Below are positions 1,418 to 10,970 of a stretch of 10,970 nt of DNA, piece by piece. The notes under the pieces were generated by a model that was not told where the DNA came from, searched no databases, and was given only the letters and a program-made list of their open reading frames with translations. This stretch comes from a virus. Its lineage: Duplodnaviria; Heunggongvirae; Uroviricota; Caudoviricetes. A program made the position numbers and the translations under genes. The DNA lies in the IMG/VR virus record IMGVR_UViG_2695420822_000001. One strand, 5' to 3'. Position 1 is the first letter of the stretch. The number at the start of each line of letters is the position of its first letter.

Positions 1418-1441
1418 AGCCTCGCGATGCGGGGCTTTTTG
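1418..1441 (+). terminator. Intrinsic terminator after the lysis cassette
   Basis: Stem agcctcgc (1418-1425) / gcggggct (1429-1436), one G-U pair, loop gat, then ttttt. Lies 32 nt after the Rz stop. Confidence 0.55.
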
Positions 1442-1447
1442 CAATAA

Positions 1448-1472
1448 ATGCGTACCGCAACGCATGTTTTTT
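1448..1472 (+). terminator. Second tandem hairpin with T-run (possible back-up terminator)
   Basis: Stem atgcgt (1448-1453) / acgcat (1460-1465), loop accgca, followed by gtttttt. Confidence 0.4.
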
Positions 1473-1587
1473 ACACCGAACCTGCCCCTTTGGAATGGGC
1501 CTTTGAGGATACCAGTTAGTGCTGGCGAGCCTCGGTGGGCTGGTTTCCTGTGCGGCAAAGGTTCATTTCAAAGAGTAGGTACACGCT

Positions 1588-2085
1588 ATGAAATCATTAA
1601 CCCTCTTCAATCAACCAATTCGTATCGGTGAAGATGGCATGATCTGCCTCACTGATATGTGGAAAGCCAGTGGTAAAAGTGAATCTGAATCGCCTTACCA
1701 CTACCTGCGAAACAAGCAGACCAAAGAGTTCTTAGCCGAGCTGGAGAAAAACCACGAATCTGTGGTTTTTACTGAGCGCGGTGTACACGGTGGAACATAT
1801 GGCGGGAAGTTTGTTGCTTACGATTATGCGGCTTGGTTAAACCCCGGGTTCAAGTACGCGGCCTATAAAGTCCTCGATGACTACTTCACCGGAGAACTTC
1901 AGCATCGCAACAGCTTAAGTGCGCAGCTCAACATGAAATGTCATGAATTTGACCAGAAGAAAGACATGGCGAGCTTCTGCGGACAAGGGCTGGCAGCATG
2001 GCGCTATACGAAGCCAGTGTTGGTCGCTGAGATTAACTCCCTGGCTAACCAGCTGCAGATTACGATCCCCGGGCTTCCGGGATGA
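1588..2085 (+). CDS. KilA-N domain protein (APSES-type DNA-binding fold), function unknown
   Basis: 165-aa ORF. Motifs typical of KilA-N: GMICLTDMWKASGK and YHYLRNKQTKEFLAEL near the N-terminus, then GVHGGTYGGKFVAYDYAAWLNPGFKYAAYKVL (compare the GTWVHP..A...A.WLSP.F pattern). About 55 aa of C-terminal extension of unknown function. Family assignment is from motif recall, not a search. Confidence 0.65.
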   Translation: MKSLTLFNQPIRIGEDGMICLTDMWKASGKSESESPYHYLRNKQTKEFLAELEKNHESVVFTERGVHGGTYGGKFVAYDYAAWLNPGFKYAAYKVLDDYFTGELQHRNSLSAQLNMKCHEFDQKKDMASFCGQGLAAWRYTKPVLVAEINSLANQLQITIPGLPG

Positions 2086-2339
2086 GTGATCATGTTATTG
2101 AATGCGCCTCCAGAGCGGGGCGCGACTTCTCAGAGTTCATGAAAGGCGAGAAGGGCATGATGGAAGCATTGGCCTCGGTGGATGAGTTTGGCGAGCAGCT
2201 GCGCCTCAACGGCTGTGTCAATCATCACTTTGTTAGCTACATGATGCGGAACTCGATCATGCAGGCATTCATGGACATGGCAAAAGCCGAGAGGAAAGAA
2301 GAGCGCCGGCGTAAGCGAGCGGAAGCAAAAGCGAAGTAG
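2082..2339 (+). CDS. Hypothetical 85-aa protein, translationally coupled to the KilA-N gene
   Basis: ATG at 2082 overlaps the upstream stop (ATGA at 2082-2085). Acidic core with C-x36-C-x2-HH spacing and a highly basic tail (KAERKEERRRKRAEAKAK). No family recognised. Confidence 0.55.
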   Translation: MSDHVIECASRAGRDFSEFMKGEKGMMEALASVDEFGEQLRLNGCVNHHFVSYMMRNSIMQAFMDMAKAERKEERRRKRAEAKAK

Positions 2340-2340
2340 C

Positions 2341-2376
2341 CATTACAAAGCCCATTTACGGGTGGGCTTGATAATG
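2341..2376. repeat. Hairpin-containing direct repeat, copy A
   Basis: cat-t-acaaa-gcc... with perfect 7-bp stem aagccca (2348-2354) / tgggctt (2363-2369), followed by gataatg. Starts 2 nt after the stop of the 85-aa ORF. No T-run follows. Confidence 0.5.
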
Positions 2377-2951: not shown

Positions 2952-3028
2952 CACTTCTGGAGTGAATCCAGATTAAACATCTCATTGCTGATGCTTGATA
3001 TTGAGCATTTTGCGCGCGGTAAGGGGCT

Positions 3029-3626
3029 NNNNNNNNNNNNNNNNNNNNNNNNNNNNNNNNNNNNNNNNNNNNNNNNNNNNNNNNNNNNNNNNNNNNNNNN
3101 NNNNNNNNNNNNNNNNNNNNNNNNNNNNNNNNNNNNNNNNNNNNNNNNNNNNNNNNNNNNNNNNNNNNNNNNNNNNNNNNNNNNNNNNNNNNNNNNNNNN
3201 NNNNNNNNNNNNNNNNNNNNNNNNNNNNNNNNNNNNNNNNNNNNNNNNNNNNNNNNNNNNNNNNNNNNNNNNNNNNNNNNNNNNNNNNNNNNNNNNNNNN
3301 NNNNNNNNNNNNNNNNNNNNNNNNNNNNNNNNNNNNNNNNNNNNNNNNNNNNNNNNNNNNNNNNNNNNNNNNNNNNNNNNNNNNNNNNNNNNNNNNNNNN
3401 NNNNNNNNNNNNNNNNNNNNNNNNNNNNNNNNNNNNNNNNNNNNNNNNNNNNNNNNNNNNNNNNNNNNNNNNNNNNNNNNNNNNNNNNNNNNNNNNNNNN
3501 NNNNNNNNNNNNNNNNNNNNNNNNNNNNNNNNNNNNNNNNNNNNNNNNNNNNNNNNNNNNNNNNNNNNNNNNNNNNNNNNNNNNNNNNNNNNNNNNNNNN
3601 NNNNNNNNNNNNNNNNNNNNNNNNNN
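3029..3626. other. Run of N (598 nt), undetermined or masked sequence
   Basis: Contiguous n characters. Hides the 3' part of the minus-strand DUF1398-like gene and whatever lies between it and position 3028. Confidence 1.
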
Positions 3627-3929
3627 GAAAACCCCTGCTGTAGCAAGATTTTTCCTGTATTCGTAAAATGATAACTCTCCTGATTTGAATCCTTTTAAGG
3701 TGGCTTCTATAAGGCATTTATTTTTTGAAAATCTTACATTTACAACCTTACCCTGTCCTTTTATTAAAACCGTATTATCGTTTTCAAGAACAAGATGAAT
3801 ATTCTCTGTGGCTAAATAGTAAATGTAATGTGAGACATTGTGACGTTTTAGTTCAGAATAAAACCAGTGATAGTTTAAATTATTTCGCACTTTATCGAAT
3901 ATTTGTTTAAAAATGGCAACCTGAGCCAT
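3627..3929 (-). CDS. DUF1398 family protein (YbcV-like, annotated in prophages as putative envelope protein); N-terminal about 100 codons visible, 3' end lost in the N-run
   Basis: Minus-strand ORF reading [101 protein letters not shown]. Preferred start is the ATG at 3929-3927, which has a GGAAGG Shine-Dalgarno 7 nt upstream; an in-frame ATG at 3944 has none. Resembles DLP12 YbcV/DUF1398 as I recall it. Family proteins are about 130-180 aa, so the gene should end inside the N-run. Confidence 0.6.
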
Positions 3930-3986
3930 TGTAGTACCTTCCATGTGATATGAGGGGGCGTAGTCTGCACGATTATCTAAATTGCT

Positions 3987-4220
3987 TCAATCTGGTCTAA
4001 CCTGTTTTCTGAGCAATTCAGTAATGTCACTCTTTTCTTTGTTTGCTTCAGGCGAAACTCTTTTTTCTGAGCACAGTCTCCGGCGGCAGGCTTCAATGAC
4101 CCAGGCTGAGAAATTCCCGGACCCTTTTTGAACAAGAGCGATGTTAATTTGTTCAATCATTTGGTTAGGAAAGCGGATGTTGCGGGTTGTTGTTCTGCGG
4201 GTTCTGTTCTTCGTTGACAT
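3987..4220 (-). CDS. Small ribbon-helix-helix-like protein (DUF3950 / YlcI-like), putative DNA-binding regulator
   Basis: 77-aa minus-strand ORF MSTKNRTRRTTTRNIRFPNQMIEQINIALVQKGSGNFSAWVIEACRRRL... Basic N-terminal arm, then a strand-helix-helix pattern like the Arc/MetJ/CopG fold. Sits directly upstream of, and co-oriented with, the DUF1398-like gene (43-bp spacer). Confidence 0.6.
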   Translation of the reverse strand: MSTKNRTRRTTTRNIRFPNQMIEQINIALVQKGSGNFSAWVIEACRRRLCSEKRVSPEANKEKSDITELLRKQVRPD

Positions 4221-4389: not shown

Positions 4390-4590
4390 GGGTCCTTTCC
4401 GGCGATCCGACAGGTTACGGGGCGGAAGGCGCGCGGGTTTTCGCTATTTATGACAATTTTCCGGTTTAAGGCGTTTCCGTTCTTCTTCGCCGTAACCTAA
4501 TGTTTTTATTTAAAACACCCCCTGAAAAGAAAGGAAACGACAGGTGCTGAAAACGGGCTTTTTGGCCTCTGTCGTTTCCTTTCTCTGTTT
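4390..4590. other. cos: cos site (cosQ-cosN-cosB) of lambda type, with variant cosN core
   Basis: Near-identical to the lambda genome ends as I recall them: ...gggtcctttccggcgatccgacaggttacg (lambda right end, contains cosQ) | GGGCGGAAGGCG (12-nt cohesive-end position, 4420-4431) | cgcgggttttcgctatttatga... cosB terminase-binding repeats: R3 cgtttccgttcttcttcg (4472-4489), R2 agaaaggaaacgacag (4528-4543) and R1 ctgtcgtttcctttct (4569-4584), R2 and R1 inverted. An A/T-rich IHF-like site lies between R3 and R2. The Nu1 start follows at 4609. Confidence 0.85.
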
Positions 4591-4608
4591 TTGTCCGTGG
4601 AATGAACA

Positions 4609-10552: not shown

Positions 10553-10970
10553 ATGTCGATGTACACAACCGCCCAGCTGCTGGCGGCAAATGAGCAGAAA
10601 TTTAAGTTTGATCCGNNNNNNNNNNNNNNNNNNNNNNNNNNNNNNNNNNNNNNNNNNNNNNNNNNNNNNNNNNNNNNNNNNNNNNNNNNNNNNNNNNNNN
10701 NNNNNNNNNNNNNNNNNNNNNNNNNNNNNNNNNNNNNNNNNNNNNNNNNNNNNNNNNNNNNNNNNNNNNNNNNNNNNNNNNNNNNNNNNNNNNNNNNNNN
10801 NNNNNNNNNNNNNNNNNNNNNNNNNNNNNNNNNNNNNNNNNNNNNNNNNNNNNNNNNNNNNNNNNNNNNNNNNNNNNNNNNNNNNNNNNNNNNNNNNNNN
10901 NNNNNNNNNNNNNNNNNNNNNNNNNNNNNNNNNNNNNNNNNNNNNGCCTGAGTTTAACGGACACTCCTTC
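10553..10970 (+). CDS. E: Major capsid protein gpE, 5' part; interrupted by an N-run and running off the window
   Basis: MSMYTTAQLLAANEQKFKFDP... matches the lambda gpE N-terminus, 56 nt after D as in lambda. Only 21 codons are readable before the N-run at 10616. The 25 nt after the N-run are not in frame if the N-run length is taken literally. Confidence 0.8.
10616..10945. other. Run of N (330 nt), undetermined or masked sequence inside gene E
   Basis: Contiguous n characters. Confidence 1.

Follow-up and report, generated by a model that had tools for sequence, protein, structure and literature searches.

A structured leader RNA heads a mobile KilA-N/p85 gene cassette in the late operon of lambdoid prophages

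A two-gene cassette between the lysis genes and cos

We analysed a stretch of 10,970 nucleotides (hereafter the window) from the IMG/VR virus record IMGVR_UViG_2695420822_000001, which represents the late region of a lambdoid Escherichia coli prophage; several E. coli chromosomes match it at up to 99.4% identity. Our subject is a cassette of two plus-strand genes, encoding a KilA-N-domain protein of 165 amino acids (aa) and a partner of 85 aa (p85), together with the sequence immediately upstream of them. The cassette lies 3' of the genes for holin, lysozyme and Rz and about 2.1 kb 5' of a lambda-like cos site and Nu1, between the lysis and head genes and in the same orientation as both. An earlier reading of the sequence alone (the original prediction) had called the two open reading frames (ORFs), 1588–2085 and 2082–2339 with an ATGA overlap, and had placed them in the slot between the lysis genes and cos; both frames and slot were confirmed. 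KilA-N/p85 is the coding part of a larger mobile unit made up of an intrinsic terminator (T1), a structured leader RNA and both genes, with the following components:

1418–1440, plus strand: intrinsic terminator T1, directly 3' of Rz; stem-loop 1418–1436 (AGCCTCGC-GAT-GCGGGGCT) and T5 at 1436–1440
1448–1580, plus strand: structured leader RNA of ~130 nt
1448–1453/1460–1465, plus strand: hairpin P1, the first leader helix, with loop ACCGCA; then T6 at 1467–1472
1455–1458, plus strand: 5' strand of pseudoknot PK, CCGC in the P1 loop, pairing with 1552–1555
1474–1479, plus strand: 5' strand of helix H_B, CACCGA, pairing with UCGGUG at 1532–1537
1488–1573, plus strand: core long hairpin, with lower stem 1488–1505/1556–1573
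1506–1509/1546–1549, plus strand: middle part of the long hairpin, AGGA/UCCU
1511–1517/1538–1544, plus strand: upper stem of the long hairpin, with apical loop 1518–1537
1532–1537, plus strand: 3' strand of H_B, UCGGUG, inside the apical loop 1518–1537
1552–1555, plus strand: 3' strand of PK, GCGG, in the 3' bulge GUGCGG (1550–1555) of the long hairpin
1577–1580, plus strand: Shine-Dalgarno-like AGGT, 8 nt before the ATG
1588–2085, plus strand: KilA-N+ORF11CD3 gene, 165 aa (ORF call, Pfam, PHROG)
2082–2339, plus strand: p85 gene, 85 aa; its start overlaps the upstream stop (ATGA, 2082–2085)

The pair, including its 4-nt overlap, recurs in about 80 viral contigs, and the overlap is retained in nearly all of these loci; the predicted coupled pair does behave as one mobile unit. 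At a coverage of at least 80% the pair was found in 389 of 5426 complete E. coli genomes (~7%), O157:H7 Shiga toxin (Stx) prophages among them, with up to three copies per genome; a scan of species-representative genomes yielded six loci and added little diversity. The pair is located 3' of Rz in the window, HK620, HK97, HK022 and Stx phages. Two other loci, in Klebsiella phage RAH1 and a Raoultella metagenome-assembled genome (MAG), have it between tail genes, and there the whole unit is present, from the terminator through P1 and the leader to KilA-N and p85. The unit is thereby shown to be mobile in one piece, taking up different positions in lambdoid late operons. The occupant of the slot also varies by phage, being KilA-N+p85, Rha, or KilA-N alone. 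Among 115 distinct genes headed by the leader, p85 follows only those of the KilA-N+ORF11CD3 type (22/24) and the KilA-N+P63C type (6/6), in the latter case across a 2-nt gap (HK97, HK022 and three enterobacterial genomes). The pair is real and under purifying selection, and both of its proteins belong to known, uncharacterised families; a literature search found no functional study of hkbK/hkbL, its counterpart in HK620.

Covariation supports a structured leader RNA

The upstream stretch 1474–1587 folds much better than its shuffled versions, with the long hairpin as the minimum-free-energy (MFE) structure (z = −3.6). We aligned 41 non-redundant copies of the leader, built a covariance model (R1) and added divergent copies, which gave a set of 33 sequences that includes HK620, HK97, RAH1, phiEt88 and Cronobacter. 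The RNAalifold consensus missed the long hairpin and mixed alternative helices, and the helices were re-derived column by column. Paired cells amounted to 90.9% in the 41 sequences and 92.5% in the 33, as compared with 34–44% when partners were slid. In the wider set, changes on both sides were seen in 31 of 44 pairs, and the covariation score was 0.391, against at most 0.085 for the slid controls.

The same held for the two pseudoknot-type helices, neither of which had been included in the search or alignment model. PK was paired in 96.8% of cells, with all four of its pairs altered on both sides, and occurs in at least five complementary variants (CCGC/GCGG, UCGC/GCGA, CCAC/GUGG, UCUC/GAGA and UCAC/GUGA), being longer in the HK97/phiEt88 types. 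H_B was paired in 97.9% of cells and has at least seven in-register complementary variants (CACCGA, CGUCGA, CAUCGA, CACAGA, CUCAGA, CAAAGA and CCAAGA). Few single-stranded bases of the leader are invariant, and this, taken with the many complementary versions of H_B and PK, fits a structural scaffold better than a ribozyme or a ligand pocket. The covariation at the RNA level further indicates that the leader is selected for its fold and is not merely a recombination anchor.

A search of 4.7 kb against Rfam 15, which includes isrK and C4, returned no match over the leader at E ≤ 1, and a search with 241 nt returned noise only (E ≥ 0.17, far below the gathering scores). The leader is a covariation-supported structured RNA, undescribed so far and with no Rfam family. 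Its position relative to the gene that follows is tightly kept: a start codon can be placed clearly in 25 family members, and in 24 of them it lies 6–12 nt past the end of the RNA model.

The leader heads several kinds of accessory gene

R1 scores the leader at 141 bits in the window and finds it before every tested KilA-N/p85 cassette with enough upstream sequence except one from Trabulsiella (L090), where no leader was found in the 309 nt upstream. A pattern scan placed the leader in at least 120 viral contigs and blastn in 954 of 5426 complete E. coli genomes (~18%), with up to five copies per genome. In 115 distinct copies the next start codon lies within ~30 nt, and the genes headed in this way fall into the following classes:

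Several Phage_pRha types, including P22 rha, ES18 gp79 and POCJ13 gp45: 41 of 115 copies
KilA-N+ORF11CD3: 24 of 115 copies
Other KilA-N types: 22 of 115 copies
HNH_3 with or without AP2: 11 of 115 copies
KilA-N+P63C: 6 of 115 copies
P22_AR_N: 4 of 115 copies
Unknown: 3 of 115 copies
No match or too short: 4 of 115 copies

A front end of terminator plus leader is thus shown to be common to interchangeable genes of the 'Bro network' (KilA-N, Rha, P22_AR_N), a set of domain-shuffled phage regulators listed in PMC10111431, and to HNH endonuclease genes. We consider the leader, which heads at least six unrelated kinds of accessory gene, the more important result of this work. It also offers a simple sequence marker by which such cassettes can be found.

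The region before P22 rha is 95% identical to the leader stretch of the window. The stretch contains the 89-nt 'P22F' RNA, to which the core long hairpin is near-identical; P22F was sequenced from P22-infected cells and vesicles and had zero reads in uninfected cells (PMC13397905). In a literature search for the leader sequence, the P22F report was the only paper found to contain it.

The leader also bears on gene annotation. In P22 (L095, NC_002371) it occupies 1003–1135, and the annotated start of rha (orf201) at 1076 falls inside the RNA; the relatives all use an ATG 9 nt past the leader (MNELIANHDF...), with which P22 Rha would be a protein of ~178 aa. Locating the leader can correct annotations of this kind. 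Some phages (L103, L131, L152, L154 and L097, which is Shigella phage POCJ13) have two leader copies ~1.4–2.7 kb apart, each with a different accessory gene. In POCJ13 they lie at 193–326 and 1565–1695; one heads 'Ant', which separates lysozyme from Rz, and the other a Rha-like gene 3' of Rz. Klebsiella phage RothD has the leader before an HNH gene that is flanked by the tRNAs and the holin.

On the other side of the cassette, region 2400–2530, with a small ORF at 2487–2624, is homologous to the 3' two-thirds of the 'P22G' small RNA/orf25 region that lies downstream of rha in P22. With the leader conserved on the 5' side and this region on the 3' side, the slot is bracketed by conserved sequence at both ends. 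Such brackets around unrelated ORFs would suit a selfish cassette, in which terminator, leader and ORF spread by recombination at the conserved flanks with little or no function for the phage. The presence of the same leader before free-standing HNH_3(+AP2) genes fits this picture too, as do the double copies in some phages, the patchy presence of the cassette with p85 gained or lost, and the fusion of a p85-like domain to T5orf172 in the protein P0132 (see below). Yet a Pfam search found no nuclease domain in either cassette protein, p85 is under strong purifying selection, and selection on the leader acts on its fold, as the covariation shows; we therefore hold a purely selfish cassette to be very unlikely.

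A domain-swapped counterpart of P22 Rha

The KilA-N domain of the original prediction was recovered in the 165-aa protein as a Pfam match (PF04383) to residues 9–101, at 57.6 bits against a cutoff of 23.8. Residues 109–161 match a second domain that had been missed, ORF11CD3 (PF10549), at 50.5 bits against a cutoff of 25. The protein falls into PHROG 129 and PHROG 10441; PADLOC and NCBIfam searches gave no family assignment, PADLOC returning a weak local match to the candidate PDC-S22 (1.2e-8 over ~30 residues) and no other defence-family match. An AlphaFold2 (AF2) model with a mean predicted local distance difference test (pLDDT) score of 84.5 shows an N-terminal beta/alpha domain, with two beta-hairpins plus helices in residues 1–85, and a C-terminal two-helix hairpin at 86–156. 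In a comparison of the KilA-N model with the PDB, Mbp1 (APSES) and winged-helix DNA binders topped the list, Mbp1 at a non-significant E = 0.79.

Over its C-terminal 68 aa the protein shares 35% identity with P22 Rha (E = 2e-8). No Phage_pRha domain (PF09669) was matched at E ≤ 1, whereas P22 Rha scores 79.8 bits for it. A natural hybrid, P0146, joins a pRha N-terminus to the C-terminal part of the 165-aa protein, with 97% identity over the latter. ORF11CD3 is thus coupled to an interchangeable N-terminal module, which in P22 is pRha, as is characteristic of the Bro network, and the 165-aa protein appears to be a domain-swapped counterpart of P22 Rha. We infer that it binds DNA through its KilA-N fold; the helical-hairpin ORF11CD3 domain probably serves in oligomerisation or partner binding.

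Attribution of p85 to no characterised family also held: it had no Pfam or NCBIfam match and is a full-length member of PHROG 875, labelled 'unknown function'. Against relatives at 53–84% identity its ratio of nonsynonymous to synonymous substitution rates (dN/dS) is 0.05–0.31, which denotes purifying selection. The AF2 model is a confident three-helix bundle (pLDDT 92.9), the last helix extending into the basic tail. The family is very narrow, a set of 1.8 billion proteins yielding 137 clusters at 90% identity and only 19 representatives at 50%, and belongs to Enterobacterales wherever the source gives an organism. A 4-kb contig labelled as a Candidatus Nanosynbacter MAG (Saccharibacteria; L085, JARKOR010000234.1) encodes an identical p85 protein behind a leader that scores as the window's does (141.2 bits), and its label is almost certainly a binning error.

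The C-x36-C-x2-HH arrangement that had been pointed out in p85 is present (C8, C45, H48, H49), as is the basic tail (KEERRRKRAEAKAK). C45 is invariant, but C8 is Ser in the relative P0122 and Ala in P0132, and in some close homologues H48 is replaced by Tyr or Gln and H49 by Tyr. With C8, H48 and H49 varying among relatives, the pattern is not a conserved metal site, and a zinc-binding reading was dropped.

The neighbours of p85 are more regular: it always stands directly 3' of a Bro-network gene, whether KilA-N+ORF11CD3, KilA-N+P63C or pRha, which ties it to the network and not to one partner domain. P0122 (57% identity) follows a Phage_pRha gene with a 4-nt overlap, in an operon of arc/mnt-like, P22_AR_N, pRha and p85 genes whose layout resembles P22 immI. 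The distant relative P0132 (L218 4001–4495, E = 6e-5) combines a p85-like N-terminus with a T5orf172/MUG113 domain; its gene lies in the tail region of a prophage and has KilA-N+P63C, Arc, P22_AR_N and Bro-N genes for neighbours. Judging from this fusion, p85 may itself be one of the modules shuffled in the Bro network; within the cassette it would be a small helical partner with a basic tail that modulates or assists the 165-aa protein.

These neighbourhoods could also be taken to mean that the cassette is an antirepressor module, in which the KilA-N protein and p85 inactivate the repressors of heteroimmune prophages, whether resident or incoming, or their own phage's repressor late in infection, as P22 Ant does. 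The loci of P0122 and P0132 have the required company, the leader also heads P22_AR_N genes and the 'Ant' of POCJ13, and close homologues are named 'antirepressor' in databases. Such names, however, are annotation transfers and not experiments. Pfam detected no ANT or P22_AR domain in the 165-aa protein, the cassette has no operator control of the Arc/Mnt type, and the general view of KilA-N is that it binds DNA and not repressors (Iyer et al. 2002, cited in PMC8585504). An antirepressor role is in our judgement distinctly unlikely.

Two candidate observations on p85 are recorded here. P22 orf80 was considered as a homologue and rejected, as it had no tblastn match and corresponds by position to HK620 hkbM. 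An exact 14-nt direct repeat (TTCCGGGATGAGTG) occurs at 2075–2088 and 2597–2610, 522 nt apart, where ~0.003 such repeats would be expected by chance in 1.36 kb; the first copy spans the KilA-N stop and the p85 start, and the repeat may be the scar of an insertion or deletion of the p85 segment.

Terminator, promoter search and late transcription

The original prediction described two tandem terminators at 1418–1472. The first, T1, is canonical: it folds as a 9-bp G+C-rich hairpin, is annotated 'terminator' in the HK544, Emek, ES18, phi80, HK75 and mEpX1 records, and has its like (a G+C-rich stem with T5) within 160 nt upstream of ~90% of the 115 distinct leader copies. The second (1448–1465 with T6) is flagged as terminator-like by a scan and in the window formally fits the hairpin/U-run rule. 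Across the leader family, however, its hairpin is kept (with 3 of 5 stem pairs altered on both sides) while most members have no T-run, and its loop pairs with 1552–1555; the supposed second terminator is therefore the leader helix P1, and the T6 that follows is a peculiarity of the window's leader subtype.

A promoter had been expected in 1473–1587. The promoter scan detected no sigma-70-like site on the plus strand between 43 and 4355, and hence none in that interval; T1, P1 and the leader are contiguous, and covariation-supported RNA fills the stretch up to the ribosome-binding site. Lambda Q-modified polymerase reads through intrinsic terminators, and the cassette shares the orientation of the late operon, so that the terminators are no insulation against late transcription, contrary to what had been supposed. 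A terminator within a tail operon, as in RAH1 and the Raoultella MAG, would moreover be tolerable only with a terminator-resistant polymerase; in lambdoid late transcription, conferring such resistance is the established role of Q. P22 rha, the positional homologue, is described as a late-operon gene (PMC4936722). The lack of a promoter-like site, the co-orientation and the late character of P22 rha together favour late read-through, which is close to the opposite of expression independent of late transcription. What had been observed at the locus is thus confirmed, and its interpretation is partly supported.

The best explanation, to which we assign a probability of roughly 0.55, is a mobile late-operon cassette that is transcribed by Q read-through, controlled post-transcriptionally by its leader, and encodes a Rha-like DNA-binding protein and a helical partner. 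The cassette would have no promoter of its own. Q-modified, terminator-resistant polymerase would transcribe it on its way from the lysis genes to cos and the head genes, and T1 would stop unmodified polymerase, leaving the cassette genes presumably silent in the lysogen. The leader, a long hairpin predicted to be locked by two pseudoknot-type helices and ending a few bases before the ribosome-binding site, would set the amount of protein or the processing of the mRNA; it may thus act through translational throttling, processing or control of stability. Translational coupling would have p85 made in step with the 165-aa protein.

The chief alternative is a true moron, expressed in the lysogen from a promoter of its own and conferring BstA-like superinfection exclusion or abortive infection, with p85 as a helper or immunity factor. 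In lambda, conversion genes are found in the slot beside cos, which in the window contains the DUF1398 and DUF3950 genes. The unit can be inserted at different places behind a terminator that insulates it upstream, the weak PADLOC match is to a candidate defence family, and BstA is a prophage defence protein with a KilA-N-like N-terminal domain (PMC8585504). But there is no promoter-like site, and its space is occupied by the leader RNA. The 165-aa protein is about half as long as BstA and has ORF11CD3 in place of the BstA C-terminal domain. Whereas bstA lies by the repressor locus and is highly expressed in lysogeny, the cassette lies within the late operon and is co-oriented with it, and the typical morons of the window sit on the opposite strand. 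The same leader also heads P22 rha, a late-operon gene that, according to work cited in PMC4936722, harms its own phage in some conditions. A true moron is unlikely on this evidence, if still worth bearing in mind.

Within the late read-through account, a more specific role for the leader can be proposed tentatively, at odds that we put below even. It may be a new class of cis-acting RNA, a portable 'expression gate' with two pseudoknots that serves harmful, horizontally exchanged genes for DNA-binding proteins and nucleases within lambdoid late operons. This gate would switch between two folds that both have covariation support, an H_B/PK-docked state and the full hairpin, by folding kinetics or through a phage or host factor, and might direct a cleavage that yields P22F; p85 would be an unrecognised partner module of the Bro network. 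In folding predictions the MFE structure contains H_B when the nascent transcript stops at 1537, and H_B gives way once the 3' arm has been added; with the lower stem left open, a docked double-pseudoknot fold could form instead.

Several points weigh against the late, leader-controlled reading or parts of it. In the nearest-neighbour model the closed hairpin is ~14 kcal/mol more stable than the state with H_B plus PK, and H_B and the complete long hairpin probably exclude each other sterically. Sequestration of the Shine-Dalgarno sequence was not supported across the sequences compared (median unpaired probability 0.28 versus 0.34 with shuffled upstream sequence, p = 0.11). More distant KilA-N+ORF11CD3 genes occupy the same slot without p85 (Erwinia phage phiEt88, Cronobacter prophages), and the three partner types of p85 have no domain in common, which leaves a direct complex hypothetical. 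Fold searches with p85 against the PDB and BFVD, and with the KilA-N model against the PDB, gave nothing significant, the matches being helical bundles of a generic kind and winged-helix proteins. The cassette may have a promoter of an unconventional type, or a processed transcript in the lysogen. The phenotype of Rha itself is known from a secondary citation, and phi80 rha is likened to it by phenotype only. As to sequestration, the AAGG of the ribosome-binding site forms part of the basal helix in the POCJ13, HK620 and HK97 subtypes, and the basal helix of the window stops 3 nt short of AGGT; we keep sequestration as a possibility for the subtypes whose basal helix takes in AAGG.

If the leader does control expression, this would explain how lambdoid phages tolerate toxic genes of the Bro, Rha, Ant and HNH types in their most strongly transcribed operon, and also why intrinsic terminators are tolerated in mid-operon.

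Flanking genes and repeated elements

The remaining features of the window that bear on the slot are as follows:

219–434: P21-type holin (Phage_holin_2_1), the start of the lysis cassette
434–931: lysozyme with a hydrophobic N-terminal segment (signal-anchor-release-like)
916–1386: Rz, with an embedded Rz1-like ORF at 1142–1333
2348–2369, plus strand: hairpin 3' of the p85 stop, AAGCCCA...TGGGCTT, then GATAATG, no T-run
3627–3944 (visible part), minus strand: DUF1398 gene, between the cassette and cos
3987–4220, minus strand: DUF3950 gene, between the cassette and cos

Downstream of the cassette the order is two minus-strand genes, the cos region, Nu1, large terminase, portal and head genes. 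The DUF1398 and DUF3950 genes (region 2982–4220, minus strand) are more like classical morons than the KilA-N/p85 cassette is. Runs of N at 2737–2951, 3029–3626 and 10616–10945 mask large parts of the sequence, and long ORFs listed there are artefacts. The cos region (4400–4600) is lambda-like: from ~4433 it is nearly identical to the lambda left end, including a palindrome at 4523–4589, and its cosN core differs from that of lambda, GGGCGGCGACCT. The palindrome was the source of spurious microRNA matches in Rfam.

A strong terminator-like hairpin at 74–95, 5' of the holin gene, probably marks where the short leader transcript from pR' ends (tR'); region 10–101, also upstream of holin, has a Trp_leader match below threshold (28.8 bits against a gathering score of 41). 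Another terminator-like hairpin lies on the minus strand at 2497–2476. The hairpin at 2348–2369 is a possible 3' boundary of the cassette and belongs (D1/D7) to a motif, ATCACAAAG(N)CCATT, found in three copies at 1398–1412, 2342–2356 and 2640–2654 (with 2362–2376 and 2664–2678), just 3' of three stop codons, those of Rz, p85 and a small ORF further downstream. Each copy is the lead-in to a hairpin, which closes with ...GGCTT(T)GATAATG or, in the case of T1, with a T-run, and the motif looks like a repeated module-boundary or weak-terminator element.

Comparison with known systems

A moron in the sense of Hendrix and Juhala consists of one or more extra genes between conserved neighbours, with a promoter of its own upstream and a terminator downstream, expressed from the repressed prophage. 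The cassette shares the insertion: the content of the slot varies, and the unit also occurs within tail operons, so that 'moron-like' remains apt for its mobile placement. It does not extend to the expression signals, as there is no promoter-like site, the terminator lies upstream, and the downstream hairpin at 2348–2369 has no T-run. BstA, the abortive-infection protein of prophage BTP1, resembles the 165-aa protein in being prophage-encoded and having a KilA-N-like N-terminal domain. It differs in its distinct C-terminal domain, where the 165-aa protein ends in ORF11CD3, and in the position of bstA beside the repressor locus, the cassette lying between Rz and cos; bstA is highly expressed in lysogeny and carries an aba DNA element (PMC8585504).

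As regards the RNA, Gifsy-1 IsrK-orf45-anrP, P1/P7 c4-icd-ant and P22 sar-ant likewise place a structured RNA directly 5' of a Bro- or antirepressor-type gene that is harmful in excess, and the P22F authors themselves draw the IsrK analogy (PMC13397905). The leader matches neither isrK nor C4 in sequence or structure, and the analysis identified no antisense partner for it; a hairpin with two pseudoknot helices is a different architecture. By pure analogy, it also recalls RNAs in which a transient structure delays the final fold. In the MS2 maturation-gene leader and in hok mRNA, translation is limited by folding kinetics, and in the cassette leader the 5' helix H_B would be transient and later displaced by a stabler long-range hairpin near the ribosome-binding site.

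Among phages with the pair itself, HK620 (hkbK/hkbL), the Stx2 phages 1717 and 2851 and many E. coli prophages have the same two genes at 94–99% nucleotide identity in the same slot; the Stx2 phage records annotate them as 'KilA-N domain-containing protein' and 'hypothetical protein'. In HK97 and HK022 (HK97p60/p61) a KilA-N gene has a p85 homologue no more than 2 nt downstream, with 83–94% identity over the aligned N-terminal 54–66 residues, and the pair is preceded by T1 and a divergent leader (29.7 bits) in which PK and H_B are compensated. Their KilA-N protein differs in ending in P63C and not in ORF11CD3, and BLAST at 1e-5 does not align the two KilA-N domains.

The closest system with a known phenotype is P22 rha (orf201), with ES18 gp79. 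Like the cassette, both occupy the slot between the Rz/Rz1 spanin genes and the packaging genes, and both have the leader of the window, at 140.8 and 142 bits. P22 Rha shares the C-terminal ORF11CD3 domain but has Phage_pRha at its N-terminus where the cassette has KilA-N, and P22 has no p85 gene, its orf80 and orf59c corresponding to HK620 hkbM and hkbN. A simple explanation through sites for integration host factor (IHF) was considered and set aside: the window is not enriched in IHF-consensus sites (11, where 7.2 would be expected), and the leader core contains none. Work cited in PMC4936722 and the ES18 annotation state that Rha and its phi80 namesake inhibit phage growth in IHF-deficient hosts, and for a KilA-N counterpart of P22 Rha this suggests a concrete candidate phenotype, growth in IHF mutants. 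The new element in this comparison is the leader, which ties KilA-N/p85 to a whole class of swappable late-operon genes.

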